Below, one piece after another: positions 493 to 35,831 of a stretch of 39,935 bases of DNA. Source of the DNA: a virus (Duplodnaviria > Caudoviricetes); IMG/VR virus record IMGVR_UViG_3300037722_000246, positions 1 to 39,935 of that record; one strand, 5' to 3'. Below the pieces are notes generated by a model. The model saw only the letters and a list, made by a program, of their open reading frames with translations, searched no databases and was not told the origin of the DNA. The stretch's first letter is position 1. Every line of letters starts with the position of its first letter. A program made the position numbers and the translations under genes.

Positions 493-2114
493 TTCTTACC
501 GTTCCCCCTTTCGATGAAAAAACCGCATGGCCTACTTTGGGACCGCAAGTTTGCGACTTCATAGAAAGTTACCTTGTGTTTGGGCCGGGGGATTTGCGCG
601 GGCAGCCTGTCATTTTAGACATAGAAAAACGGGCGCTTATTTACCGGATGTATGAAGTCTATCCGCAGGGACATGAGCAAGCCGGGCGGCGGCGGTTCAA
701 ACGTTGCGCTATTTCTCTGAGAAAGGGCACGGCAAAAACTGAACTTGCCGCCTGGATCGCGGCGGTTGAATTGCACCCATACGGGCCGGTTCGTTGCGAT
801 GGTTGGGATGCAAACGGGCAGCCGGTAGGTATTGGGGTGACTGATCCTTATGTGCCCATGATTGCGTATACCCAAGAGCAATCTGATGAGCTTGCCTATG
901 GCGCGTTGAAGATGATCCTTGAATACAGTCCGTTGGCTGATGATTTTGACATTGGCCTGGAACGTATTATGAGGATCGGCGGAGATGGCAAGGCCGTTAG
1001 TTTGGCGACTGCACCGGATGCACGGGACGGGGCGCGTACCACGTTTCAAGTTTTTGATGAGACTCACCGGCTTAATGCGCCACGTTTGAAGGCAGCGCAT
1101 AGGACAATGTTAGCCAATATTCCAAAGCGTATGTTATCCGATGCGTGGTCAATGGAAATTACGACTGCACCTGCACCAGGTGAAAACTCAGTGGCAGAGG
1201 ATACAATGGACTATGCGCGGCAAGTTCATGATGGCAAAATTCAGGATAGTCGTTTGTTTTTCTTCCATCGGCAGGCAGACGACAAGCACGATTTGACAAC
1301 ACAGGACGGAGTACGGGCGGCCGTAATTGAGGCCAGCGGACCGGCAGCGTCATGGTCAGACATCGACGGCATTGTAGAAATGTGGCGGGATCCGACAAGT
1401 GACAAAACGTATTTAGAGCGCGTTTGGCTTAATCGCCTAGTCCGTGCCTCAGAACGTGCATTCGATATAGAGCAATTCAAGGTCCTGGCAGATGAAGATT
1501 ACCGGCCAATGCCTGGGGCAATGATTACACTCGGCTTTGACGGGGCACGATGGCATGATGCAACGGCAATTGTGGCAACCGAGATTGTTACCGGATTCCA
1601 ATGGTTAGCGGGATTGTGGGAGCGGCCAGAATTGGACCTTGAATATTGGGAAGTTGACGCGGCTGATGTTGATGGTGTCATGGCGGAGCTAATGGATACA
1701 TACAAGGTCTGGCGGGCCTATTGTGACCCGCCATACTGGGAAACATCAGTAGCAGATTGGGCCGGGCGGTATGGCAGTGAACGAGTTTTGGAATGGTGGA
1801 CAAATCGGCCGAAACAAATGGCCTATGCAATCAAACAATTTAATACGGCCGTTACCTCTGGCGATTTGTTACATGATGGCAATCCTCATTATATCCGGCA
1901 CGTCGGTAATGCGGTTCGTAAAGTGTTGCGGATTCGAGATGAAGAAGGGCAGCCGCTATGGACAATTTACAAAGAGCGGCCAGATAGCCCGCATAAAATT
2001 GATGCGGCGATGGCTGGTGTTCTGAGTTGGGAAGCGCGAAACGACGCATTAACGGCCGGCGTTGGCAAGGTGCAACAGTCAGTATATGAGAGCCGGGGCA
2101 TTGTTGTCGCATAG
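489..2114 (+). CDS. terL: terminase large subunit
   Basis: Walker A-like RKGTAKTE, Walker B VFDETH, nuclease motifs LGFDGA and KIDAAMA; 541 aa. Confidence 0.95.
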   Translation: MILTVPPFDEKTAWPTLGPQVCDFIESYLVFGPGDLRGQPVILDIEKRALIYRMYEVYPQGHEQAGRRRFKRCAISLRKGTAKTELAAWIAAVELHPYGPVRCDGWDANGQPVGIGVTDPYVPMIAYTQEQSDELAYGALKMILEYSPLADDFDIGLERIMRIGGDGKAVSLATAPDARDGARTTFQVFDETHRLNAPRLKAAHRTMLANIPKRMLSDAWSMEITTAPAPGENSVAEDTMDYARQVHDGKIQDSRLFFFHRQADDKHDLTTQDGVRAAVIEASGPAASWSDIDGIVEMWRDPTSDKTYLERVWLNRLVRASERAFDIEQFKVLADEDYRPMPGAMITLGFDGARWHDATAIVATEIVTGFQWLAGLWERPELDLEYWEVDAADVDGVMAELMDTYKVWRAYCDPPYWETSVADWAGRYGSERVLEWWTNRPKQMAYAIKQFNTAVTSGDLLHDGNPHYIRHVGNAVRKVLRIRDEEGQPLWTIYKERPDSPHKIDAAMAGVLSWEARNDALTAGVGKVQQSVYESRGIVVA

Positions 2115-2121
2115 TCGTATA

Positions 2122-2150
2122 TTGCAATTAAGATGTTTTTGATTTAATAT
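2122..2150 (+). promoter_or_regulatory. possible sigma70-type promoter upstream of head genes
   Basis: TTGCAA-17 bp-TAATAT in an AT-rich intergenic gap. Confidence 0.35.
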
Positions 2151-2160
2151 GTAAGGCAAA

Positions 2161-2397
2161 ATGGAACTTACCTTGTGGCAAAAGCTATTTAATCCATATC
2201 CGCAACTGAGGCGGGCGATTGTGAACTTGAAAACGGGCACGGTATTTCGGGCTATTGTTTACCGAAGAACCGGGCCGTTTTTGGTTTTGCGGCAAGTCGA
2301 GATGCTATCAGATCGTGACAGTAAAATGGAGCCGCGCGTAACCAATGGTGAGGTACTGATACAAATGACTGATATTGATTTTATACAGGTAATCTAA
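2161..2397 (+). CDS. small hypothetical protein between terL and portal
   Basis: 78-aa ORF coupled to the portal start (TAATG). Confidence 0.6.
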   Translation: MELTLWQKLFNPYPQLRRAIVNLKTGTVFRAIVYRRTGPFLVLRQVEMLSDRDSKMEPRVTNGEVLIQMTDIDFIQVI

Positions 2398-4328
2398 TGG
2401 CAGTCATTGATACCGTTAATGGTTTGCAAATCACGCGGCAAAATTGGACACCGGGAATTATGCGCAGTAGCCTGCGTTTTTACGATGCTCATAATTATGC
2501 CTATGCGGAGCTTTACCGGTTACAGCCAAACGTGCGGACGTGCGTTGACTTCCTGGCGCGAAACATTGCCCAACTTGGTTTGCATTTTTTCCGGCGTGTT
2601 AGTGAAACGGATCGGGAGCGCTTGCGGGATTATCCCCCTGTCAATTTAATCAATCAGCCGTTACCAGCGCAGTACAAAATGACACGGTATCGGCTTATTG
2701 AAAGCCTGATGGCTGACCTGGGCATTTACTTCAATGCTTATTGGCTGAAAATCCGGCGTGATGGTGAATTATCGGCACTGCTACGCATTCCGCCTACGAT
2801 GGTTGAGGTTGAGGGCGGGTTGTTGATGACAAACTATAAAATCACAGTAGGGGGAAGTACAAAAGACTTTGCACCCGACGATGTGATCCATTTCCGGGGC
2901 TACAATCCGGAAAACCCGATAGAGGGCATGTCACCGCTTGAAACATTGCGGCGTATTTTGGCAGAGGAACACAGCGCGGGCACATACCGGGAAAACTTCT
3001 GGCAAAACGCGGCGCGGCAAAGTGGCGTTATCAAACGTCCATTGGCTGCACCTTCTTGGAGCGACACGGCGCGGGAACGGTTCATAGCTGAATTTGAAGA
3101 ACTGTACAGCGGGGAAGAAAACAGCGGCAAGACGGCCGTTTTGGAAGAGGGTATGGAGTGGGTTCCCAACACGTTTAATGCTAAAGACAGTGAATACCTT
3201 GCCGGGCGCAAACTGACACGGGAGGAATGCGCACGGGCTTACCATATTCCCCTTCCGATGGTTGGCATTTTAGATCATGCCACGTTCTCCAATATTTCTG
3301 AACAACACAAAAACTTGTACCAAGATTCATTGGGGCCGTGGCTGGCAATGATCGAGCAAGATATTGATTTGCAGTTATTGCCAGAATGGACAGATTCAAA
3401 TGGCGTATATTGTGAATTTAACATAGCGCAAAAACTACAAGGCGATTTTGAGCAGCAGGTTAAGAGTTTGCAAAGCGCAGTTGGACGGCCGTACATGACA
3501 GCCAATGAAGCGCGGGCCAAACTAAACTTGCCGTCAATGGCTGGAGATGCTGATCAACTGGTAACGCCGTTAAATGTTATCGTTGGCGGGCAGGCATCGC
3601 CGCGTGATAGCGCTCCAAAGATTAGGCAAGCAATACAAGGTCAAAACTCAAAAGCCGCTTCTTTTTCCTCATACAATCCCGACTTGCGTCGAAACCATGT
3701 ACAGAAATGGACTGAGATTTTCACGGCACATTATCGACGGCAGGAAAGCGCGATTGTCAGTCGCGTACCGAAAGGTCGGAAACTTGACATCGGTGGTGTG
3801 TGGTATGATGAGGAACGATGGAACCGGGAACTGGCAGAGGATTTGCTGAAGGCGAACCGCTTAACGGCCGTTGCCTGGGCCGAACTGATAGCAGAACAAA
3901 CGGGCATGGCGGCATCTGAAGATATTATGATGGCCTGGCTGATTGAACATAGCCGGGTGCAATCTGAAAATATCAATTTTGCTATGCGTGTGAAATTGAC
4001 AGAGGCACTAGCCAAACCGGATGCAGATGAGGAAGTACGCGATCTATTTAGGCAGGCGATTACCGTTTGGTCACAGAATGACGCGGAAACAGCCGTTACC
4101 ACTGCTAGTCAATTTGGTGCAAATGAGGCGGCGCGTGCCGGTGGTTTGCGTATGAAAACATGGCAGACGAATAGCGGCAATCCGCGTGCCAGTCATGCTG
4201 CGCAAAATGGAATGACAATACCAATTGGTGATACGTTCCCGAATGGGCAAAAGTGGCCGGGCGCGCCTGCTGTACCTGCTGAGGTTGCGAACTGTCAATG
4301 TAGTGTGTCATTTTCGAGAGGTGAATGA
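2397..4328 (+). CDS. HK97-family portal protein fused to a C-terminal MuF/minor-head-like domain
   Basis: Portal motifs VIHFRGYNP, GMSPLE, ARAYHIP, MTANEARAKLNLP. C-terminal KTW...RASH...WPG...NCQC is the MuF signature. Confidence 0.9.
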   Translation: MAVIDTVNGLQITRQNWTPGIMRSSLRFYDAHNYAYAELYRLQPNVRTCVDFLARNIAQLGLHFFRRVSETDRERLRDYPPVNLINQPLPAQYKMTRYRLIESLMADLGIYFNAYWLKIRRDGELSALLRIPPTMVEVEGGLLMTNYKITVGGSTKDFAPDDVIHFRGYNPENPIEGMSPLETLRRILAEEHSAGTYRENFWQNAARQSGVIKRPLAAPSWSDTARERFIAEFEELYSGEENSGKTAVLEEGMEWVPNTFNAKDSEYLAGRKLTREECARAYHIPLPMVGILDHATFSNISEQHKNLYQDSLGPWLAMIEQDIDLQLLPEWTDSNGVYCEFNIAQKLQGDFEQQVKSLQSAVGRPYMTANEARAKLNLPSMAGDADQLVTPLNVIVGGQASPRDSAPKIRQAIQGQNSKAASFSSYNPDLRRNHVQKWTEIFTAHYRRQESAIVSRVPKGRKLDIGGVWYDEERWNRELAEDLLKANRLTAVAWAELIAEQTGMAASEDIMMAWLIEHSRVQSENINFAMRVKLTEALAKPDADEEVRDLFRQAITVWSQNDAETAVTTASQFGANEAARAGGLRMKTWQTNSGNPRASHAAQNGMTIPIGDTFPNGQKWPGAPAVPAEVANCQCSVSFSRGE

Positions 4329-5449
4329 TGAGCAAAGTCAAATGCGAGTGTCAATATTGTGGCAACGATTTTATGACTTGGACTTCTCGGATAAAGAGGG
4401 GTGCTGGTAAGTATTGTTCGCGTGAATGTACTGATAAAGGCAAGCGTGTAAATGGCACTTATGATAAATTGGCTGAAGAAATGAGGGAAGGCGAGTATCG
4501 TAAATGTGAAGTTTGTGATACAGAGTTTTATGCTGATAGGTATCGTATTGAGTTGGGGCAAGGCCGATTTTGCAGCCAAGCTTGTTCTGCTAACAATCGA
4601 TCTATTGGGAAACCCCGCGAGTTGATGACTATTAAGTGTGCTTGGTGTGAATGTAACTTTGAAACATATAATGCCAATCGCAAGTATTGTCATTATGATT
4701 GTTTTGTGGAATCTAGAAAACATGGGGAATATAGAAAGTGCGAAACTTGTGATGAAGAATTCTATGTTCAGAAAAATCAAATCGAATCTGGAAATGGAAG
4801 ATATTGTAGTCGAGTGTGTTTTTCAGAAGCAATTAAACAAGGTAAATATCCTAATTTGGGAGCTGATCGTGGTGGAGAATATCGGAATTGTTTAATTTGT
4901 TCAGCAGAGTTTTATTTATCACCAAGTAGAATTGAAAGTGGATATGGTTATTATTGTAGTCGAGAATGTGCTCATGCCGGGCAACGCAGGGGAGATATTT
5001 TTGAGTGTCTTGTTTGTGGAAATGAGTTTTATTTACCGCCTAGTAAAATTGCTGAGGAAAGGAAATATTGTAGCCGTAGTTGTTATATGAAGGATGAAAA
5101 CAAAAAGCGATGGGAAAGCGGTACGTATGATGGTGTCTTCCAATCTCCGACATCAATTGAAATTGCCACAGCAGAAGCCTTAACAGGATTTGAGCTAATC
5201 TATAAGCAAGAATATCGCCCAGATGATTATAGCAGGCCGTTTGATTTTCTTGTTGGAGAAAACTTACTTATAGAAGTGCAAGGTGATTATTGGCATAATC
5301 GGCCAGGCGCAAGAGAGCGCGATGCGGAAAAAGCACAGTGGGCACAGGAAAATGGGTATCAATTAGTAGAGTTTTGGGAATATGAAATTCATGATATGGG
5401 TGCAACCGAATTGATTAGAGAAAGAGTTATTCCTCTGGTAGGAGATTGA
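4325..5449 (+). CDS. Cys-rich Zn-finger-repeat protein with C-terminal DUF559/Vsr-like endonuclease (homing-endonuclease-like)
   Basis: Six CxxC...F...YCSxxC-type repeats; C-terminal PFDF...IEVQGDYWH PD-(D/E)xK-type motif; visibly AT-richer DNA. Confidence 0.75.
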   Translation: MMSKVKCECQYCGNDFMTWTSRIKRGAGKYCSRECTDKGKRVNGTYDKLAEEMREGEYRKCEVCDTEFYADRYRIELGQGRFCSQACSANNRSIGKPRELMTIKCAWCECNFETYNANRKYCHYDCFVESRKHGEYRKCETCDEEFYVQKNQIESGNGRYCSRVCFSEAIKQGKYPNLGADRGGEYRNCLICSAEFYLSPSRIESGYGYYCSRECAHAGQRRGDIFECLVCGNEFYLPPSKIAEERKYCSRSCYMKDENKKRWESGTYDGVFQSPTSIEIATAEALTGFELIYKQEYRPDDYSRPFDFLVGENLLIEVQGDYWHNRPGARERDAEKAQWAQENGYQLVEFWEYEIHDMGATELIRERVIPLVGD

Positions 5450-5450
5450 T

Positions 5451-6053
5451 ATGAAAACAAAGATATTTTCGGCTCCATTAGAAGTTAAGGCAGACGAAGG
5501 TAATGCACATACTTTTGAAGCTATATTTGCCCGTTTTAATGTTATCGATCATGATGGAGATGTTGTATTGCCTACTGCCATTGAAGATGGAGCTAAAGTT
5601 CGTATTTCTTATTGGGGGCACAGATGGCAAGACCTTCCTATTGGACGAGGGGTTATAACCGTTGATGAGGAAAAGGCTAAAGTATCAGGAGTTTTTTTTG
5701 ATACCGAGGGTGGACGGGAAACATATGAGACACTGAAGGGTCTTAATGATTTGGCTGAATTCTCATATGGTTTTGATGTGCTTGAGGCAGAGCGAGGAAC
5801 GTTTAGAAATGAGGATGTGCAGTTTCTCAAAAAGTTAAAGTTATTTGAGGTAAGCCCGGTCATGCTTGGGGCAACACCTGATACTGCTTTATTAGCAATA
5901 AAAAGCATGAAAAATGATGATATTGGCGATGGTGATGAAGGCGAGATCGAAGATGATAAGCCGAGCGAACCGGATGCTAATCTGATGACTGAAATAACAA
6001 TAGTAGAAATCGGAGTGATAGCACTCGGAGGATTATCAAATGAAAAAGAGTGA
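5451..6053 (+). CDS. HK97-family prohead protease
   Basis: DHDGDVV, H..LPIG, FSYGF, LFEVSPV..GA motifs; directly upstream of the capsid gene. Confidence 0.9.
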   Translation: MKTKIFSAPLEVKADEGNAHTFEAIFARFNVIDHDGDVVLPTAIEDGAKVRISYWGHRWQDLPIGRGVITVDEEKAKVSGVFFDTEGGRETYETLKGLNDLAEFSYGFDVLEAERGTFRNEDVQFLKKLKLFEVSPVMLGATPDTALLAIKSMKNDDIGDGDEGEIEDDKPSEPDANLMTEITIVEIGVIALGGLSNEKE

Positions 6054-7350
6054 AAAGCTCATTGCAGAAATGCAAGGTAAATGGAAAGAAATTGAAGGCA
6101 TCCGTGATGCCGTTGTCAAGGATGAACGCGAATTTACGGCCGATGAAAAGGCGCGTGTTGAAGCGACTCTTGACGAAGTGCGCGGTATCGAAGTCCAGGT
6201 GAAGAAAGAGAAAGAGAATGAGGCGTTGGTTGACCAAATCAATGGCTTTAACGATTTGTTTGCTCCCCCGGCCGGTGGCCAGAAAAATGATCAACCTGAC
6301 AATGGTGATCGTCGAGAACGCAAACAACAGGCGATGGCCTTGGGTGAACAGTTTGTCAAGTCTGATGTTTGGCAAAACTGGATGAAACAATTCAACGGCC
6401 GGATTCCTGATAGTGCGCGTGGCCTTTCTTCTCCGCCTGTGGAAATCAAAAACCTGATGCGCAAAACGCTATTGACTGGAACCAGTGACACAAGCGCCGG
6501 GGCATTTGTCCAAACGGACTATACCGGCATCTATGAACCGCTTGGCCGGTACATGTTGTCATTGCGCAATCTGGTAAGCGTTCGCAATACAACGAGTGAC
6601 ACGGTGGAGTTTGTACGCCAGGTAACGCAAGTTACTCAGGCGGCAACTGTGCCAGAATCGAACGTGACTGATTATACCGGCGCGACTGGTGAAGTCAGTG
6701 GCGAAAAACCCGAAGCGGCCATGACGTTCCTGAAGGTTCAGGAAACCGTCAAAACCATTGCTGTCTGGATTCCTGCAACCAAACGCGCCCTGTCTGATGT
6801 TGCTCAATTGCGCGGCTTGATTGATGACGAGTTACGCGCCGATCTGAATGAGGAACTGGAAAACCAGATGCTCAACGGCGACGGCGCGGGCGAAAACTTC
6901 ACTGGCTTGAACAATGTGTCTGGTGTCCTGGCTCAGGCGTTTACGACCGACCTTGCAACGACAGCACGTAAGGCCATTACCAATTTGCTTATTAATGGCA
7001 AGCAAATGCCGACGGCATGGCTGTTGAATCCGCAGGACTGGGAAGCTTTCGACCTGATGACTGATACCAACGGACGCTACTACTGGGGCGGCCCGATGGC
7101 AATGGGGCCGCGTACCCTTTGGGGCGTTCCTGTTGCTCAAAGTTTCTTCCAGACGCAAGGCACGGGTTGGCTTGGTAACTGGACTAAAGCCGTTTTATGG
7201 GATCGTGAACAAGCAAATATCTCGGTAAGCGATTCTCATAGTGACTTCTTTATCCGCAATATGGTTGCAATCCTTGCTGAGTTGCGGGCGGCCTTCGGGA
7301 TTATACGTCCATCAGCATTTTGTGAAGTAGACCTTGAATCTGGTAGCTAA
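6040..7350 (+). CDS. major capsid protein (HK97 fold, N-terminal coiled-coil delta domain)
   Basis: KTIAVWIPATKRALSD, MLNGDG, LWGVPV, FIRNMVAILAELR; RBS GGAGG. Confidence 0.95.
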   Translation: MKKSEKLIAEMQGKWKEIEGIRDAVVKDEREFTADEKARVEATLDEVRGIEVQVKKEKENEALVDQINGFNDLFAPPAGGQKNDQPDNGDRRERKQQAMALGEQFVKSDVWQNWMKQFNGRIPDSARGLSSPPVEIKNLMRKTLLTGTSDTSAGAFVQTDYTGIYEPLGRYMLSLRNLVSVRNTTSDTVEFVRQVTQVTQAATVPESNVTDYTGATGEVSGEKPEAAMTFLKVQETVKTIAVWIPATKRALSDVAQLRGLIDDELRADLNEELENQMLNGDGAGENFTGLNNVSGVLAQAFTTDLATTARKAITNLLINGKQMPTAWLLNPQDWEAFDLMTDTNGRYYWGGPMAMGPRTLWGVPVAQSFFQTQGTGWLGNWTKAVLWDREQANISVSDSHSDFFIRNMVAILAELRAAFGIIRPSAFCEVDLESGS

Positions 7351-7353
7351 TCG

Positions 7354-8862
7354 ATGAATGTAAATGTGCTGGTCAGGAACCTAAACGAAGATCGAGTGAT
7401 TCCGCGTTTTGCCGGGTATCTTCGGGATGGTCTTGGCTGGCACATTTCAAATAAGCCGGTCAAGGGAATGGATGCATATTACCTCAGTCTGTACCTTGAA
7501 TGGAGTTTTATGCAACCACTCCCCGACCGGCCTGTCATGGCTTACTTTTCACACCGAGAAGAAAACCCGGTAAATGGGCCAAAGTCCCGACTATTTGACA
7601 ACGTGGCGAGCTTGGTAGATCTGCGCATAGTTACAGCGGGGATGTATCGTGATATGTTGGCTGATTGCGGGCCTACCGTGCAGATACCTGCACCGGTTGA
7701 ACGAGAACGGTTCACAATTCCTGGAAAACTTTCTGGTAGAAAGGCTCTTACAGCCGGTTTCTCTGGTTATGTCTACGGAAATAAACGAAAAGGGGAAGAT
7801 TTAGCCAGCCGATTGGTGAATTATTATCCTGCTGTTTCCTGGCGAGCGAGTGGGCGCGGCTGGCCTGCATTGACGCGGCGATTTACGTGGGCAGAGATGC
7901 CAGCGTTTTATCAGTCGCTGGATGTCCTGGTAATTACGGCACGTGTCGAAGGCGTCCCGATGCCAGCATTAGAGGCGTTGGCTTGTGGCGTATCGGTAGT
8001 CATCCCGCGCGGTGTTGGACTATTGGATGAACTGCCAGACATGCAAGGCATACACCGATATGATCGCGGCAATGCGCAGGATTTAATACGCGCCTTCGGA
8101 GAGGCAATACATACAAGGTCATGCACCAGCCGTGAAACATTGCGGGCAGTGACGCAACCATACACAATTGAGGCATGGATACAAGGTCATAAATCCGCAA
8201 TCGAACGAATTAATGAGGAACCTATGGAAAAAATAATCACTGGTCGGGATGATAAAATTATGAAAACCATCCGGCAGTCATGGCCCGAGGTTGACACCGT
8301 TTTGAAATGGACGACCAAATACATCCCCAAAATCAAGCGACAAGTAGCTGAATATCAAGGCGCGATCCTGGCGTACTATGCACACACGTATAACAAACCT
8401 GGGGCGCGGTTTCTTGAAATTGGCACGGCGCTTGGTTACTCGGCTTGTGTCATGGCAACGGCTGCACCGATGGCCAGAATCACGACCTTGAATCCTAAGG
8501 ACGGCGAATATCAGAAAGCCGTCAAAAATTTGTCAGTTCGTTCTAACGTCCGAGTTGTAAAGCAAACATCGGAAGAATTTTGGCATAGTGACAACGGTCA
8601 ATACGATATGATTTTTGTGGACGGCGATCATCGGTATGCGATGGTGCTACATGATGCACAGTTTTTCAACCGATTGAAACCAGGCGGCCTGATTATCTTT
8701 CATGACTATTCGCCTGATGGTAGTGACCGGCCAAGTGATGGCAGCTACAAGGCGCTTAATGATTTGGCAGAAAAGCATAGGCCATTTGACGTGAAGGTGA
8801 TCGGAACTGGTAACGTTGGCATGGTTGGTTGGATTCGCCAGTCGGGGGAAGAGTGGGCATGA
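7354..8862 (+). CDS. GT-B (GT4-like) glycosyltransferase fused to a class I SAM methyltransferase
   Basis: EGVPMPALEALACG (E-x7-E of GT4); LEIGTALGYS and IFVDGDH...GGLIIFHDY (Methyltransf_24-like). Confidence 0.85.
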   Translation: MNVNVLVRNLNEDRVIPRFAGYLRDGLGWHISNKPVKGMDAYYLSLYLEWSFMQPLPDRPVMAYFSHREENPVNGPKSRLFDNVASLVDLRIVTAGMYRDMLADCGPTVQIPAPVERERFTIPGKLSGRKALTAGFSGYVYGNKRKGEDLASRLVNYYPAVSWRASGRGWPALTRRFTWAEMPAFYQSLDVLVITARVEGVPMPALEALACGVSVVIPRGVGLLDELPDMQGIHRYDRGNAQDLIRAFGEAIHTRSCTSRETLRAVTQPYTIEAWIQGHKSAIERINEEPMEKIITGRDDKIMKTIRQSWPEVDTVLKWTTKYIPKIKRQVAEYQGAILAYYAHTYNKPGARFLEIGTALGYSACVMATAAPMARITTLNPKDGEYQKAVKNLSVRSNVRVVKQTSEEFWHSDNGQYDMIFVDGDHRYAMVLHDAQFFNRLKPGGLIIFHDYSPDGSDRPSDGSYKALNDLAEKHRPFDVKVIGTGNVGMVGWIRQSGEEWA

Positions 8863-9599
8863 ACCGAGGGATTTACTGCGTAGCATTTGGCGATCCGGCG
8901 CGGGCGTGTGCCGTTGACATGATGAAAAGTGTCAAACAGTTTTTGCCGGATATTCCAATTGCGTTGGCAGCCGATAAACCGATTGGCATTGAAGATATTT
9001 TCATCAGCCAACCGGACAAGGACATTGGCGGCCGGTCGGTAAAACTCATGGCCTATGATTTGACGCCGCCTGAGTGGGGCGCGGTGCTATATTTGGATGC
9101 TGACACGGAAGTGACTTCTCCCGATGTGCAATTTTATTTTGATTTGATTAGTGACGGTTGGGAGTTTGTTATCTGCAAAGACCCGATGCGGGAGGACGTG
9201 GCGCAATTGCCGCGTCACAAATATGATGCGGCGGAATTGGTGGAGATTGAGTCTGTTTTAGGGACCTTGCATACGCTCATGTTAAATGGTGGCGTGTGGG
9301 CATTTGCGAGGAACGAAAACGTCAAAGCGTTTTTCGATTCCTGGCAGGTTGAATGGGCAAAGTACGGGCGGCGCGATCAGGGCGCTTTGCTGCGGGCCTT
9401 GTATACTCATCCGCTTAGGATGTACGTGCTAGGCAATGAGTGGAATTATTTCCCGGCGTACAGTTCAAAGATTACTGAACCGGCTGGCCTGATGCATTAT
9501 CCAGGCAAGGCGCGGCGGTGGGGCGGACAGATACCGGGACGGCTGGACAGTCCGATAGCATGGCAGAAGGTAAAACAACACCAGGGCGGGAAGCGATAA
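8859..9599 (+). CDS. GT-A (GT8-like) glycosyltransferase
   Basis: YLDAD (DxD), NGGV, DQGAL, WN motifs; ATG at 8859 overlaps the upstream stop. Confidence 0.8.
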   Translation: MNRGIYCVAFGDPARACAVDMMKSVKQFLPDIPIALAADKPIGIEDIFISQPDKDIGGRSVKLMAYDLTPPEWGAVLYLDADTEVTSPDVQFYFDLISDGWEFVICKDPMREDVAQLPRHKYDAAELVEIESVLGTLHTLMLNGGVWAFARNENVKAFFDSWQVEWAKYGRRDQGALLRALYTHPLRMYVLGNEWNYFPAYSSKITEPAGLMHYPGKARRWGGQIPGRLDSPIAWQKVKQHQGGKR

Positions 9600-10051
9600 T
9601 GGATGTGCTGAACATTGGCTGTGGCAATCGAATGATTGAAGGTGCTGTACATCATGACCGGGTGAAGCACCGTCCTGAGATTGATGTGGTTCACGATTTG
9701 AACGTATTGCCTTGGCCATTCGATGGCAAGTCATTTGATAGAATCGTGGCCTTGTCTGTGTTGGAGCATTTAGACATTGATCTTGTTGCCAGCCTGAATG
9801 AATGTCACCGGATTCTAAGACCGGGCGGGCAGGTGGTAATCAAGTTGCCGTTGTGGAATGCAGAGCGATCATATGATGATCCGACTCATCGCTGGGTTTA
9901 CTCCCTGCGGGCGCTTGACCAGCTTTGTCCTGACACAGAACGGGGTAAGGAATACTCATTCTACACGCCGTACAAATGGAAGTTTGTGGAGCAGCCGCAT
10001 CCGAATGAAGAAAAAACATCACTCTGGGCTACATTGGAGGCACTGCCATGA
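9599..10051 (+). CDS. class I SAM-dependent methyltransferase
   Basis: LNIGCG, VLEHL, RILRPGG, DPTH motifs; TAATG coupling. Confidence 0.85.
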   Translation: MDVLNIGCGNRMIEGAVHHDRVKHRPEIDVVHDLNVLPWPFDGKSFDRIVALSVLEHLDIDLVASLNECHRILRPGGQVVIKLPLWNAERSYDDPTHRWVYSLRALDQLCPDTERGKEYSFYTPYKWKFVEQPHPNEEKTSLWATLEALP

Positions 10052-10659
10052 CGTGGGGCATTTTGCTATTGGGGCGTGATGACATAATCAAAAGTCGGGC
10101 GAAACGGTATAAAGTGGCCTTGAATGTGGGCGATGCTCCTACCCTGCCATTTGACAGAACACTCATCACCAAGCCGGGAACGGCCGTTCCGTGGGAGTTG
10201 TTACCGGCAGCTTGGGAATTATTGGATAAATGGGATGCGGCTGTACCCTTTTGGGAGTATACCGAAACGGCCGTAAACGTTGGCAGTCATGAGGATCGGA
10301 AACGGACACAGGACGTTGTACGCGATTTGCGAGTTTTGTTACATGCGACTGAGTTGGTTTTTGTGAAAAAGAATCAAATGGGTATTGACCTTGTATCGTG
10401 CTGGCAAGATGAAATGATACAGGGTGGAGATGAACGGCTTGCATTTCTGAGAGCAACATACAAGGTCAAACCGCGTTTGTGCATCCTGCCAACCTCATGG
10501 CTAAATGCGCGGCGCGTGGTAGTGACTGCATTGCCACGTCAACCGCGGAATGCAGACAAGCCGCTGATTCGTGTTGAAATTCAGCCGGGCCGTTTTGTGA
10601 AATGTCACGAAGGTGATGAAAAAATGGTATTGGCTATGATGGATAGAGGACGGAGGTAG
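10048..10659 (+). CDS. hypothetical protein, possibly a degenerate GT-A-like fold
   Basis: 'W..EM..GGDERLAFLRATY' parallels 'W..EW..RDQGALLRALY' in the GT8-like gene; no clear DxD. Confidence 0.55.
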   Translation: MTWGILLLGRDDIIKSRAKRYKVALNVGDAPTLPFDRTLITKPGTAVPWELLPAAWELLDKWDAAVPFWEYTETAVNVGSHEDRKRTQDVVRDLRVLLHATELVFVKKNQMGIDLVSCWQDEMIQGGDERLAFLRATYKVKPRLCILPTSWLNARRVVVTALPRQPRNADKPLIRVEIQPGRFVKCHEGDEKMVLAMMDRGRR

Positions 10660-10661
10660 AT

Positions 10662-11057
10662 ATGGCTATTGTAAGTAAGAAAAGTTTTTCGATTGATGAT
10701 CAGAAAGCGCGACAGAGTAAGGGGCCGTTAATTCGTGTGGAACTGCGCCCGGGCCAATTCGTTAAAATGTATGAGGCCGATGCAATCGCGGCCGGGCACA
10801 TCAAACCAAAAACCGAACTGGCACAAAAGTCGATGCCAGCGCAAGAAAACAAAATGCGACTGCCTGAAACTGAGAAACAGGAAACGGCCGTTCCCCCTTC
10901 CCCTGATGACTTTGGGGAAATTGAAGGCGTGGGGCCTGCTACGGCGCGGCGGTTGATTGCGCAGGGCATTACCACGTTTGACGAGTTGCGAAATGCCGAC
11001 TTGTCTTTCTTGAACGACAAACAACGCGGTGCAATTGAGGAATGGCGGAATGGCTGA
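10662..11057 (+). CDS. helix-hairpin-helix domain protein
   Basis: DDFGEIEGVGPATARRLIAQGITTFDEL HhH motif; RBS GGAGG. Confidence 0.7.
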   Translation: MAIVSKKSFSIDDQKARQSKGPLIRVELRPGQFVKMYEADAIAAGHIKPKTELAQKSMPAQENKMRLPETEKQETAVPPSPDDFGEIEGVGPATARRLIAQGITTFDELRNADLSFLNDKQRGAIEEWRNG

Positions 11058-11655
11058 TTTTTGCACGGTTGACGATGTGGCGAGTTTCCTGCAGGTGTCA
11101 ATCACGACAGCGGCGCAAATTGCAGCGGCTGAACGTGCTGTTACCGAAGCAGCGGCAGCGATACGTAACTATACGAACCAGTATCTTGAATTGGTAGAGG
11201 ATGAGACAATCATGCTGGATTCACGCGGCGGCACGCGGTTGTTTTTGCCTGAGTTGCCAGTCACTGAGGTGACTGAAGTAGTTGAGGATGATGACACGTT
11301 AGTTGTCACGACTGATTACAAACTCGGACAATGGGGCATCCTGCACCGGGTAGGCGGCGCAAAGTGGGATAAAGGAATCCAGATTATTGAAGTCACATAC
11401 TCACATGGCTATGCTATACTGCCTGATGACATTATAGCGATTGCTACACGCGCGGCGGCGCGGGCGTATCAGGCGGGCCTGCGGGCGGCTGAGGGTGATG
11501 CGATTCCTGGTATATCATCACGGGCATTAGGTGATTTTAGTGTTAGCTATACGGCTGAAACTGGAGGCGGAGTAAGTGAAGGTGTTCTTGGTGCATCGGC
11601 AGCAAGGTTGCTGCTATTTTCTGAGAGGGATATTCTGAATGCATACAAGGTTTGA
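11050..11655 (+). CDS. head-tail adaptor
   Basis: MADFCTVDDV start, LPELPV, VTYSHGY, ALGDFSVSY; position after the head module. Confidence 0.8.
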   Translation: MADFCTVDDVASFLQVSITTAAQIAAAERAVTEAAAAIRNYTNQYLELVEDETIMLDSRGGTRLFLPELPVTEVTEVVEDDDTLVVTTDYKLGQWGILHRVGGAKWDKGIQIIEVTYSHGYAILPDDIIAIATRAAARAYQAGLRAAEGDAIPGISSRALGDFSVSYTAETGGGVSEGVLGASAARLLLFSERDILNAYKV

Positions 11656-11671
11656 GGCAATGAGTGGGAAA

Positions 11672-11701
11672 ATAAAAAAGTCCAATTATTCATTGGACTT
11701 T
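11672..11701 (-). terminator. intrinsic terminator, best on minus strand (possibly bidirectional)
   Basis: AAAGTCCAAT-TATTC-ATTGGACTTT stem; the A-run at 11674-11679 is a U-tract on the minus strand. Confidence 0.65.
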
Positions 11702-11703
11702 AT

Positions 11704-11768
11704 CCATGCCGGGCCTCGCCTCGCCGTACCTGACCCCGCCTTGCCTGGACATACCAAGCCATGCCGGG
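11704..11768. repeat. 13 tandem 5-bp units, 12 of the form CCNNN
   Basis: ccatg ccggg cctcg cctcg ccgta cctga ccccg ccttg cctgg acata ccaag ccatg ccggg. Confidence 0.85.
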
Positions 11769-11780
11769 AACATGAAATAA

Positions 11781-11789
11781 ATTATACCA
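11781..11789 (-). promoter_or_regulatory. extended -10 promoter (TGgTATAAT) on minus strand
   Basis: + strand ATTATACCA reads TGGTATAAT on the minus strand, pointing into the pentamer repeat; -35 is weak. Confidence 0.5.
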
Positions 11790-11808
11790 TGCCTATTGTG
11801 GAATTACC

Positions 11809-12162
11809 ATGACAGTCTTTGAATCACTCCTGAACAATGCCGGAACTGTTTACCGGCGTACTCGCACAAGCGACGGGCAAGGCGGATGGGAAATTGATTA
11901 TGCCTTGCACATAACAATACAAGGTCGTATTCGACCGGCTGGTAATACTGAACGCGACGTGGCCATGTTGGAAAATCGGCGCGTCACTCATGTGCTTTAC
12001 GTAGTGGCTGGCACTGACATCCAACGTGGCGATAGGGTGTACATTGGCGATTTGGTAGTGGACGTGGAAGCGATTAGAGAACCATCATTGGCAAATGAAC
12101 ATTTGGAAATTGATTGCATCGAATATCAGGTGGAAGCGGCAAATGTTGTAAGTGGCTCATGA
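11809..12162 (+). CDS. head-closure (head-tail joining) protein
   Basis: DGQGGW, DIQRGDRV, HLEIDC motifs; synteny. Confidence 0.8.
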   Translation: MTVFESLLNNAGTVYRRTRTSDGQGGWEIDYALHITIQGRIRPAGNTERDVAMLENRRVTHVLYVVAGTDIQRGDRVYIGDLVVDVEAIREPSLANEHLEIDCIEYQVEAANVVSGS

Positions 12163-21524: not shown

Positions 21525-21963
21525 ATGAATGATGAAACATTGCTGCAAGAAATTTTGGTGGAACTCCGCGCAATGCGGGAGGAAAACCGCGTAAATAAAT
21601 TTCGCTACGTCCGAAGATCTGGAGGCGGTGCAGATACGGCAAGCACGCTATGGCGAGCGTCTGGACAAAATCGAGGCACGACTGGAAACCATTTGGAACG
21701 AATTAGTCAACCGGCAACAGCAACCATACAAGATCCAATCACCACACGACCAACTCTATGACCTGATGGATAAATCGCTTAATGATGAGGAGGTACAAGA
21801 TTTGTGTTTTACACTTAAAATCGACTGGGAGAGTCTACCCGCTCAGTCAAAGCGCGGGCGCATCAGGGAGGTGATCCGGCAAATGCAACGCGAGTCGCGC
21901 ATCTATCAATTAATAGATTATTTGCAACGAAAACGGCCACAGATTGAATGGCCGTCATTATAA
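21525..21963 (+). CDS. coiled-coil + EAD7-like (effector-associated domain) protein, apparently split by a frameshift near 21592-21600
   Basis: C-terminal LYDLMDKSLNDEEVQDLCFTLKIDWESLPAQSKRGRIREVIRQMQRESRIYQLIDYLQRKRPQIEW fits my recollection of the EAD7 pattern. Removing one TAAA copy joins ORFs 21525 and 21628. Confidence 0.6.
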
Positions 21964-27393: not shown

Positions 27394-28257
27394 ATGAACA
27401 CATTACAACAAGTGGCAATGTCCTGGCTTGACCGGGGCATTGCCTCATTGCCCATTTCTTACCGCTCAAAAAGGCCGAACTTCTCAGCACTTACCAAAAC
27501 TGGCGACATTGACGAAAACGGCCGGCCAACGTGGGAACGGATGAAAACCGAACTGCCAAGTGAATCTGACCTTGTATTGTGGTATGGCAGTGGCATATCA
27601 AATATTGGCATTGTGACCGGACATCAAAACTTAGTAGTCGTTGACTTTGACAACTGCCATGCATTTGATTTGTGGATGGCAACCTATGGCAGCCGGTATG
27701 CAAGCACATACAAGGTCACCAGCGGGCGCGGCTGGCATCTCTACTATTATATAGAGGACATGCCAGTATACACCATGTCATGGATTGGAGGTGAGATAAA
27801 ATGCTCAGGCTATGTCTTGGCTCCGCCGTCTATCCATCCATCCGGCAAACCGTACCGGGCCGCGTCAAGTGACGTTGACATCATGACCATTAGCTCCATC
27901 TACGACATCCTGCCTGAGAGTGTATTTTTCAAGCAAGAAGAGTTTGGACCTTGTATCGTTGCCAAGCATGATGTTTGGAATCCTGCGATACAAGGTCAAG
28001 GCAACGGCTATTTCAATGCCAAGCAAGAGGTAAGCATCCTGTCACTCTTCCCAACGGCGCGGCATACTGGCAACGGCTGGTATTCGGTGTCATGCCCATT
28101 CCACAACGACAACCATAATAGCGGTTGGATAAACACGAACAAAAACCGCTACGGGTGTTACGCCTGCGTCAATGGCTCATTATCAGTTGTTGATGTCTAT
28201 ATGCGGCTGCATTCCTGCGACTTGGAAACGGCCGTTAACCAGTTGAGGAATTTATGA
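27394..28257 (+). CDS. bifunctional primase-polymerase (Prim-Pol) with C-terminal CHC2-like Zn finger
   Basis: NIGIVTG..LVVVDFD, SGRGWHLYY, YVLAPPSIHPSG; CPFHND...CYAC. Confidence 0.9.
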   Translation: MNTLQQVAMSWLDRGIASLPISYRSKRPNFSALTKTGDIDENGRPTWERMKTELPSESDLVLWYGSGISNIGIVTGHQNLVVVDFDNCHAFDLWMATYGSRYASTYKVTSGRGWHLYYYIEDMPVYTMSWIGGEIKCSGYVLAPPSIHPSGKPYRAASSDVDIMTISSIYDILPESVFFKQEEFGPCIVAKHDVWNPAIQGQGNGYFNAKQEVSILSLFPTARHTGNGWYSVSCPFHNDNHNSGWINTNKNRYGCYACVNGSLSVVDVYMRLHSCDLETAVNQLRNL

Positions 28258-29021
28258 ATATTGAACGTATTGTTATTTGGTTTTCTTCCGGTGTCACCAG
28301 TGCAGTAGCTGCCAAAATCACCGTAAATAAATACGCGGGAATTTTGCCAGTTCATCTGGTCAATTGTGACACCGGCAGCGAGGACGATGACAACTGGCGA
28401 TTCGCTCATGAGGTATCGACGTGGGTTGGCTTGCCGTTGGAAATTATCAGGAATGAGAAATATGAGGACACGATAGCGGTTTACCGCTCCTCTGGATTTA
28501 TCAAGAGTGTGCATGGTGCAAAATGCACCTACGAACTTAAAAAACTCCCCCGCCGCCAGTACGAAAACCTCGCCACTGACTTACAGGTGTTTGGTTATGA
28601 TGCGGACGAGAAAGGTCGGGCGCAACGATTCAACGAAAACAATCCAGAGGTGGCGACGTGGTTCCCGCTTATCGAAGAGGGCATCACCAAAACGGACGCC
28701 CGGCAGATTCTCGCCCAGGCTGGCATACAAGAGCCGTTGACCTACTCGCTCGGATTCAAAAACGCCAACTGCCTGAAGGCGGGCTGCGTCAAGGGCGGCA
28801 TGGGCTACTGGAATCATATCCGCAAAGTATACCCGGCCGTATTTTGGAACATGGCCAAAGTTGAACGAGAAATAGGCCATGCCATTTGCAGTTCAGAGAG
28901 GCAGGGCGAGAATGGCGAACGGATAAAAATACCGGTCTATTTGGATGAGTTGCCGCCAGATGCCGGGAATTACGACAGCGAGCCGGCGTTTCAATGCGGT
29001 TTGTTTTGCGGACAATATTGA
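28254..29021 (+). CDS. PAPS-reductase-like adenine nucleotide alpha-hydrolase
   Basis: WFSSGVTSA PP-loop-like motif, CTYELKK, FPLIE, NANC..GCVKGG.YW. Confidence 0.75.
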   Translation: MNIERIVIWFSSGVTSAVAAKITVNKYAGILPVHLVNCDTGSEDDDNWRFAHEVSTWVGLPLEIIRNEKYEDTIAVYRSSGFIKSVHGAKCTYELKKLPRRQYENLATDLQVFGYDADEKGRAQRFNENNPEVATWFPLIEEGITKTDARQILAQAGIQEPLTYSLGFKNANCLKAGCVKGGMGYWNHIRKVYPAVFWNMAKVEREIGHAICSSERQGENGERIKIPVYLDELPPDAGNYDSEPAFQCGLFCGQY

Positions 29022-34708: not shown

Positions 34709-35164
34709 ATGAAATTCGATCCATTCAAAATTAATAATAATGATAGTTGGAAAAATGCACCTCCATATCCGAATTGGGCTGATAAAAAACGCTATTATGC
34801 TGAATACCTCTTGTCAGAAGAATGGGCAGAAAAACGACAAGAACTTATAAACCTTGTTGGATACGAATGTGAAGTGTGTCGATCAAGAAACGCATTACAA
34901 GTTCATCATTTGTGGTATAAAAATTTATATCATGAGCCAATGACCGATCTTGTTTTATTATGTGTTAGGTGTCATGAGGCAGCAGATAAGTCCAGAAAAG
35001 AAGGACGATTACAATCAGAACTTGCGCATTGGGCAATATCTAATGATTGGAGATCGGCAGGATTATCATTGAAAGAGACATGCAAAAGGTTTGCACTTTA
35101 CAAGTTCACCACTGGTACGCGACCATTTATAATCGGTTGGATATTTGGAATTGATTTTGAGTAG
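34709..35164 (+). CDS. HNH endonuclease
   Basis: CEVC...LQVHHLWY...DLVLLCVRCH. Confidence 0.8.
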   Translation: MKFDPFKINNNDSWKNAPPYPNWADKKRYYAEYLLSEEWAEKRQELINLVGYECEVCRSRNALQVHHLWYKNLYHEPMTDLVLLCVRCHEAADKSRKEGRLQSELAHWAISNDWRSAGLSLKETCKRFALYKFTTGTRPFIIGWIFGIDFE

Positions 35165-35210: not shown

Positions 35211-35831
35211 ATGTATTTAAGCGCAACGACTGCACAATTCTTTCAACGTCCTGATATTTATGGTTGCATGTTTTCGTATCGAAAGACTGGCCGCCAGGAT
35301 GAAGCGCTAAAAACTGACTGCAAGTGGATGCTTGACAATGGCGCATATACCGGAAATTTCGATGATGAGAAGTGGATTCGATGGCTAATTGACATGTGGC
35401 CATACCGCAAAAATTGCATAGGCATTGTAACGCCGGATGTCCCCTATAGTGCCTTTGATACCATCCGTCGGTTTTTCGCCTATTATCGTTTCCCTCAGTT
35501 ATTAGGCTACCCGGTTGCCTTTGCTACTCAGGACGGCATGATGCCCGGCATGGTTCCCTGGCCGCTGTTTGACGTGTTGTTTATTGGTGGCAGTGATGGA
35601 CACAAACGGGGATATGAGGCGAATGTTTTAGCCGATGAAGCCAAAAAACACGGAAAATGGGTACATGTTGGGCGCGTATCATCACCAAATGCCTGGGGCA
35701 AATACTGGACATGGGCAGATTCGTTTGATGGAACAACGTTTGCCCGTGGCGATTCTGTAAAAAAGTTTCACCAATTTTCGGCAGCCCTGAGTAATCATGG
35801 ACAATATCTAGCACGGAGGTTTGAATTATGA
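35211..35831 (+). CDS. TGT/DpdA-like (guanine transglycosylase-like) TIM-barrel protein
   Basis: LDNGAY, PDV, QDG, LFIGGS, HVGRV, ADSFDGT motifs. Confidence 0.6.
   Translation: MYLSATTAQFFQRPDIYGCMFSYRKTGRQDEALKTDCKWMLDNGAYTGNFDDEKWIRWLIDMWPYRKNCIGIVTPDVPYSAFDTIRRFFAYYRFPQLLGYPVAFATQDGMMPGMVPWPLFDVLFIGGSDGHKRGYEANVLADEAKKHGKWVHVGRVSSPNAWGKYWTWADSFDGTTFARGDSVKKFHQFSAALSNHGQYLARRFEL

Follow-up and report, generated by a model that had tools for sequence, protein, structure and literature searches.

The window analysed here is a whole virus record (G000) of 39.9 kb, 98% complete, whose head and tail genes lie on the plus strand. Between the genes for the head-tail adaptor and the head-closure protein Hc1 it carries, on the opposite strand, a short cassette made of a promoter-like site, a run of pentamers and a terminator-like hairpin (Table 1). 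The letters that the initial annotation had read at this place were all found again: the extended -10 site, TGGTATAAT, stands on the minus strand at 11789-11781, the 13 pentamers at 11768-11704 agree with it letter for letter, and the stem of the 10-bp hairpin (11701-11677) is followed by a run of T. The same annotation had described a self-contained antisense unit, and this holds for the arrangement of promoter-like site, repeats and terminator-like hairpin, while the promoter activity is a prediction.

Table 1. Positions of the cassette, its neighbouring genes and the related guide loci discussed in the text
Feature	Record	Position	Strand	Remarks
Inserted solo-vrRNA cassette, 153 bp	window	11656..11808	minus	between head-tail adaptor and head-closure genes
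Extended -10 promoter-like site TGGTATAAT	window	11781..11789	minus	read from sequence
Guide tract, 13 YNNGG units	window	11704..11768	minus	read from sequence and decoding
3′ tail, 10-bp hairpin and T-run, terminator-like	window	11672..11701	minus	fold z = -5.19
Head-tail adaptor gene, flanks cassette	window	11029..11655	plus	phrog_442, E = 5e-33
Head closure Hc1 gene, flanks cassette	window	11809..12162	plus	phrog_25, E = 1.4e-4
Stand-alone cassette, 19 units and hairpin	L223	~2925-3100	minus	antisense between terL and portal
Stand-alone cassette, promoter-like site and hairpin	L262	~280-430	plus	
Stand-alone cassette, promoter-like site and hairpin	L263	~7940-8110	plus	
Array unit	L224	8000-8065	plus	VIPR-positive locus of another Vipr clade
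G006 VIPR locus: HNH, vipr (5499-6077, minus), staggered guides, 93-aa ORF, more guides	L155 (G006:C1)	4870-6381	minus	
Second G006 VIPR locus, with vipr	G006:C1	37421-37957	plus	
G006 Neck1-directed guide, 17 units	L256	tract start 12073	minus	

The first letter of the pentamers is a pyrimidine in 13 out of 13, which is the defining GGY/NN signature of VIPR and is absent from the initial annotation. Twelve of the units end in GG and one in GT, and the variable NN letters, in transcript order CC, AT, TT, AT, CA, AA, GG, CA, AC, GA, GA, CC and AT, comprise eight different dinucleotides. This is the sole period-5 GG tract in the window: a pattern of eight GG pairs, with one mismatch allowed, gave six overlapping matches, all of them in the guide tract, and 0 in 100 shuffles, and the binomial chance of such a tract over the window is ~1.5e-11. 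The tail hairpin is unusually stable (z = -5.19; equally stable shuffles, 0 of 200), and the fold of the repeat tract by itself is unremarkable (z = -0.12). An Rfam search of the window returned no match. Upstream of the extended -10 site, a scan for the sigma-70 -35 consensus found none. The cassette unit is likely to be transcribed, with a predicted RNA start near 11774-11773. TGnTATAAT occurs at six sites in the window, two of them on the minus strand; the second of these, at 5234-5226, lies inside an HNH gene after the portal gene and has no repeats downstream.

The cassette is missing from the closest relatives, L001 and L002 (adaptor 88 and 85% identical), in which the adaptor stop abuts the next ATG, and the gap between adaptor and head-closure genes does not exceed 54 bp in any of the 27 distinct contigs of the family with both genes (31 rows, from which four duplicates were removed), versus 153 bp here. 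We therefore regard it as an accessory insertion. In contigs from two other studies, position 11483 or 11486 is joined to 11806 through ~160 different letters, consistent with an adaptor end that has diverged and carries no cassette, and a 207-bp contig of a third study spans 11717-11923 with six differences.

Several other regions of the window were recorded as side observations. Directly 3′ of the major capsid gene, at 7354-10659 (plus strand), there are glycosyltransferase and methyltransferase genes, possibly for virion or DNA glycosylation, and the same arrangement is present in G005 and G006. An HNH-like gene at 34709-35164 (plus strand) is kin of HNH genes that in many members of the target clade immediately precede vipr; here the next gene is an unrelated 206-aa ORF (phrog_15826) rather than vipr. 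An EAD7-domain protein with one near-identical database match is encoded at 21628-21963, and a PAPS-reductase-family gene at 28254-29021, both on the plus strand. As to the host, the ESM Atlas gave viral clusters only; of 401 genomes from the phylum to which L219 (a Chloroflexota record) belongs, two held TerL relatives at 55-57%, a count made with no control phylum compared, and the vipr target matches in genome bins fall in six unrelated groups.

Assignment of the repeat tract to the VIPR guide RNAs

The preprint text on VIPR describes its guide RNA, vrRNA, as 9-16 YNNGG repeats with variable NN and a structured 3′ tail, in which the NN letters pair with DNA while each third target base is skipped and the skips fall on wobble positions, and it presents Vipr as a RAMP protein that represses transcription (10.64898/2026.04.26.720920). 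As stated in a second preprint text, Vipr polymerises on the vrRNA with one protomer per repeat, and residue H17 of SUSP1 Vipr contacts G1 of the GGY motif (10.64898/2026.04.26.720927); a further VIPR preprint is available (10.64898/2026.10.21.760802).

Tracts of ten GG pairs at period 5 were found at 136 loci in 2 of the 64 parts of IMG/VR, corresponding to an estimate of ~4,400 stretches overall. Once 20 low-diversity runs (simple satellites and poly-G; 14 loci) had been dropped, position 3, which follows the GG, was a pyrimidine in 94% of 3,402 units (358 diverse tracts, 114 IMG/VR loci). The gene most commonly adjoining such tracts was Vipr, at 46 loci, as identified by the SUSP1 structure PDB 36PP with E = 9e-27 for one member and E = 4e-44 for a 39-sequence profile (A2) composed of 38 of the 46 Vipr sequences (170-260 aa) and the Vipr of G006, a VIPR-positive relative of the window phage.

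With 13 units, the tract in the window lies within the published range of 9-16, and the hairpin provides a structured 3′ tail; hairpin-like tails, judged by eye, also follow the native tracts of the target clade at L148, L150 and L162. At the level of sequence, the cassette unit matches a form of the VIPR guide RNA rather than a sponge for a host protein. The suggestion of an RNA type not yet described, made before this comparison, was not borne out, the type having been described in 2026 as the vrRNA.

A solo or orphan vrRNA is one with no vipr on its contig or within 20 kb, and it spares its own genome. The profile searches, from which this status is known, gave 0 vipr matches in the 39.9-kb record: a 46-sequence Vipr HMM run on six frames of the window reached a best E of 1.7 on stop-to-stop and 0.38 on read-through translations, and profile A2 had 0 matches, while finding both vipr genes of G006 used as positive control. 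Unannotated ORFs of suitable size at 35211, 10048, 23086 and 24867, considered as candidates for an in-genome Vipr, were rejected with an hhalign probability <1% each, and no vipr or vap remnant was found by profile search of the window. Because the vipr gene is absent by these searches, which a very divergent Vipr type might escape, the cassette is a solo guide and not a complete VIPR system, which holds vipr and vap at one locus. Against its own genome the guide has a best site of 17/26, the modal value of 200 shuffles; self-targeting was rejected on this ground, and in this respect too the guide behaves as a solo vrRNA.

The decoded target and related guides

Decoded with a one-base skip, the guide falls in frame on vipr codons ~15-27, with the skips on wobble positions, and spells the P-x-x-M-H-N-G-Q-T-x-D-P motif of vipr genes. 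Since they decode in this way, the NN letters are taken as a target code and not as spacer filler. In an untailored test on 140 collected loci, the eight best sites (19-21/26) all spelled P-x-x-M/C-H-x-G-x-x-A-D/N-P. Run untailored on both strands of 46 vipr genes, the guide had a maximum of 21/26, and six genes scored at least 19, all in frame. Among 1,000 base shuffles none reached this maximum, and among 1,000 unit shuffles one did; sites of at least 19/26 appeared at most once per shuffle across 2,000 shuffles, versus six genes for the real guide. Skips of 0, 2 and 3 bases on the same genes gave 19, 15 and 18, versus 21 with the one-base skip.

A vrRNA target was defined by an NN match of at least 80% under the one-nucleotide skip and not under other skips; the values obtained here were 21/26 untailored, 22/26 in G006 and 24/26 at best. 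Of the 26 guide letters, 21 were kept in a search pattern that was relaxed at five positions after the vipr matches were known. It retrieved 18 viral, 52 metagenome and 6 genome loci, and all of these 76 loci, a number that includes duplicates, lie in frame in vipr. They score 21-24/26, mostly from vipr codons 13-17 onward, and represent 51 distinct sites, so that the wobble alignment is found both in the six untailored genes and in 76/76 tailored matches.

Exact-pattern scans of three collections found no perfect 26/26 target, the best being 24/26, and unit 10 (GA) is mismatched at 51/51 distinct target sites, 50 of which have GC, the letters that the guides of L223 and L224 also carry at this position. 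As there is no perfect target and unit 10 is always mismatched, the guide has perhaps drifted, or its real target is unsampled. Exact scans with part of the guide gave no better target: units 6-13 had six matches of 18-20/26, none of them the vipr motif, and units 1-9 had a single match, outside any vipr gene, with 21/26 in full. When all 13-unit windows of 121 other tracts were run on the 46 genes, one tract reached 21 and two reached 20; given this tract and the one non-vipr site, a score of 21 alone is within the reach of chance.

The His of the target motif aligns with H17 of SUSP1 Vipr, and the guide footprint covers its codon. Since the footprint spans the codon of a residue aligned to the G1-binding H17, mutational escape is likely to be costly.

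The VIPR-positive relative G006 (L155; 40.5 kb, 100% complete) belongs to the same family as the window phage, with identities of 77% for TerL, 62% for portal, 52% for capsid, and 66% each for adaptor and tail terminator. In this genome the guide scores highest at vipr codon 15, with 22/26; its next site scores 17, and 0 of 500 shuffles reach 22; on the second G006 vipr the guide scores 14. The VIPR locus of G006 that carries the matched gene is also antisense, between the head-closure and Neck1 genes, one gene further on than the cassette of the window. One of the guides of G006 is directed, on decoding, at Neck1 in the relatives L241, L236 and L229, with 27/34 each (shuffle maximum 24, n = 300), and scores 22/34 on its own Neck1 and at most 19/34 on that of the window, which makes VIPR conflict within the phage family likely. 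The Neck1 gene decoded by this guide directly adjoins the G006 VIPR locus. Among 2,672 guide windows, none aimed at the window phage scored above chance (best 18/22).

A search for the same target code in guide form returned 2 + 2 loci (L223 and L224; L262 and L263). Cassettes of the promoter-repeat-terminator form, which the initial annotation had proposed to look for in other phages, do occur: L223, L262 and L263 each have a promoter-like site, a guide and a hairpin. L223 comes from the same phage family (TerL 72%), has TGATATAAT where the window has TGGTATAAT, and its guide scores 31/38 on the G006 vipr from codon 15, a score reached in 0-1 of 300 shuffles on the 46-gene set. The guides of L262 and L263 decode to L-M-H-N-G-Q-L-x-D-P-L, with 22/28 and 24/32 on the 46 genes and 0 of 300 shuffles each, and L262 has a GT deviation after an AT unit, the same unit as in the window. 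The L223, L262 and L263 records, which are 10%, 9% and 72% complete, respectively, yielded no vipr. The L224 unit, in contrast to these stand-alone cassettes, is part of a VIPR-positive locus; it targets the MHNGQTADP clade, with 22/26 on the G006 vipr versus 15/26 on its own vipr.

Possible action on VIPR-positive phages and alternative explanations

The reading that we consider probable is that the RNA would be made from its own promoter-like site, loaded in trans by the Vipr of a co-infecting or resident VIPR-positive phage, and would direct this Vipr to the vipr gene of that same phage, leading to its repression. With no detectable partner gene here and a guide that spells the start of vipr, it is likely that a rival's weapon is turned on the rival. 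As a side effect, each RNA would also tie up some Vipr (about 12 protomers), and the window phage and the VIPR-positive phage would have a host in common. The partner of the RNA is thus most likely the phage protein Vipr and not a host protein of the TRAP or CsrA type. Of the partner proposed in the initial annotation, the oligomeric RNA-binding nature is retained, as Vipr assembles with one protomer per repeat, and the host origin is given up, as the guide decodes to vipr genes and the unit has 2 GGA and 2 GAG; its interpretation as a whole is partly supported.

The four stand-alone cassettes, in the window, L223, L262 and L263, have different insertion sites and common core units. We tentatively suggest that portable promoter-guide-terminator cassettes of ~150 bp pass from phage to phage, across unrelated groups, and serve as a broad anti-VIPR module; in the same reading, held with equal reserve, the target of each cassette would be the conserved N-terminal motif that binds RNA throughout a Vipr clade, and the rival's Vipr would shut its own gene.

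That the RNA would act as a sponge for Vipr only, titrating the rival's protomers while its inherited vipr-matching code no longer matters, appears unlikely. Binding of one protomer per repeat, the consensus-like extended -10 site and the 2-4 mismatches to the better vipr sites (21-24/26 overall) would suit such a role, but the same target motif is kept in four separate stand-alone cassettes; moreover, as reported in the preprint text on solo guides, 2 of 4 REP-targeting solo guides blocked VIPR in E. coli relative to a non-targeting guide, so that targeting mattered there (10.64898/2026.10.15.759431).

We hold it as quite improbable that the cassette was left behind by a lost VIPR locus and is now drifting, or is passively carried with no present effect. 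Its GT unit, the constant mismatch of unit 10 and its absence from close relatives would be expected of a relic; against this, the promoter-like site, the 13/13 pyrimidines and the hairpin are all intact, L262 has the same deviation at the same unit, the window holds no vipr or vap remnant detected by the profile search, and the 207-bp contig from a different study shows only six differences over 11717-11923. Very improbable, in our judgement, is a solo guide with some other, unsampled target for which the vipr match would be secondary: the exact-pattern scans of three collections did lack a 26/26 site, but all 76 loci that match the 21-letter pattern are vipr, and the exact matches of units 1-9 and 6-13 (one and six) do not extend beyond 21/26.

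The two remaining explanations are hardly credible. CsrB/RsmZ sponges present many GGA motifs, and TRAP-binding RNA has (G/U)AG triplets every 5 nt. The roles first proposed, sponging of a host protein (an RNA-binding ring or one of CsrA type) or folding as a G-quadruplex, would account for G pairs at period 5 in a self-contained unit, but the unit contains 2 GGA, 2 GAG and 0 TAG, and such roles leave both the 13/13 pyrimidines and the decoded vipr match unexplained. A leaderless mRNA for a 27-residue peptide, from an ATG at 11773, 7 nt after the -10 site, through an open frame to a TGA in the hairpin loop, would have to contend with open frames in 9 of 15 family tracts versus 8.3 expected (p = 0.44, a small test) and with the missing equivalent start in the L223 cassette.

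Relation to known systems

Compared with complete VIPR systems, as these are described in the preprint text, the window cassette is alike in its number of YNNGG repeats within 9-16, variable NN, structured tail and one-base-skip code on wobble positions, and differs in that its genome has no detectable vipr or vap and holds a guide only (10.64898/2026.04.26.720920). Solo vrRNAs without vipr in the carrier are known in phages and satellites of Enterobacteriaceae; the text that describes them reports that vipr-targeting orphan guides address early vipr codons and are ~90% wobble-aligned, leaves out 291 carriers lacking homology to any VIPR-positive genome, and states that the fitness value of vipr-targeting solo guides is still open (10.64898/2026.10.15.759431). 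The window guide shares with them the vipr-null carrier, the GGYNN tract, the wobble-aligned predicted footprint in early vipr and the low self-match, here 17/26. The Enterobacteriaceae guides that this text treats in detail are from SUSP1 relatives, were left after a vipr-vap1 deletion and have a SUSP1-type pseudoknot tail, whereas the window guide is part of an antisense promoter-guide-hairpin cassette inserted in the morphogenesis operon of an unrelated phage family, is aimed at a different Vipr clade (that of the MHNGQTADP motif), and ends in a single plain hairpin rather than in the SUSP1-clade pseudoknot. The main text of the same preprint does not apply the words promoter, terminator or antisense to such cassettes (10.64898/2026.10.15.759431). 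Inserted antisense cassettes in non-enterobacterial phages are undescribed in the VIPR preprint text covered here; the preprints' supplementary tables may list such cassettes or this Vipr clade.

Surveys of vipr-targeting solo guides have so far been limited to phages of Enterobacteriaceae; the comparison adds an uncultured phage family, and indicates that solo guides arrive as small inserted cassettes, not only as leftovers of a deleted locus. RNA anti-CRISPRs, which are solitary repeat units, and mini-arrays redirect host effectors. The cassette resembles them as a small phage RNA exploiting another party's RNA-guided effector, and differs in the effector family and code, in the viral origin of the exploited effector, and in that its guide is predicted to be a working one and not a dummy. 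The window guide and the Vipr of G006, whose gene the guide matches, form a ready test pair; if the preferred reading is true, a clade of Vipr proteins could be switched off by an RNA of ~100 nt, which would be of use should VIPR become a tool for gene control.

Guide tracts of other forms were also seen among the collected loci. At L009, 640-1162 (minus strand), there is an unusual guide array with a near-regular spacing of 114/124 bp, and L032, at 1501-2200 (plus strand), and L094 hold phase-locked guide tracts of ~700-800 nt.
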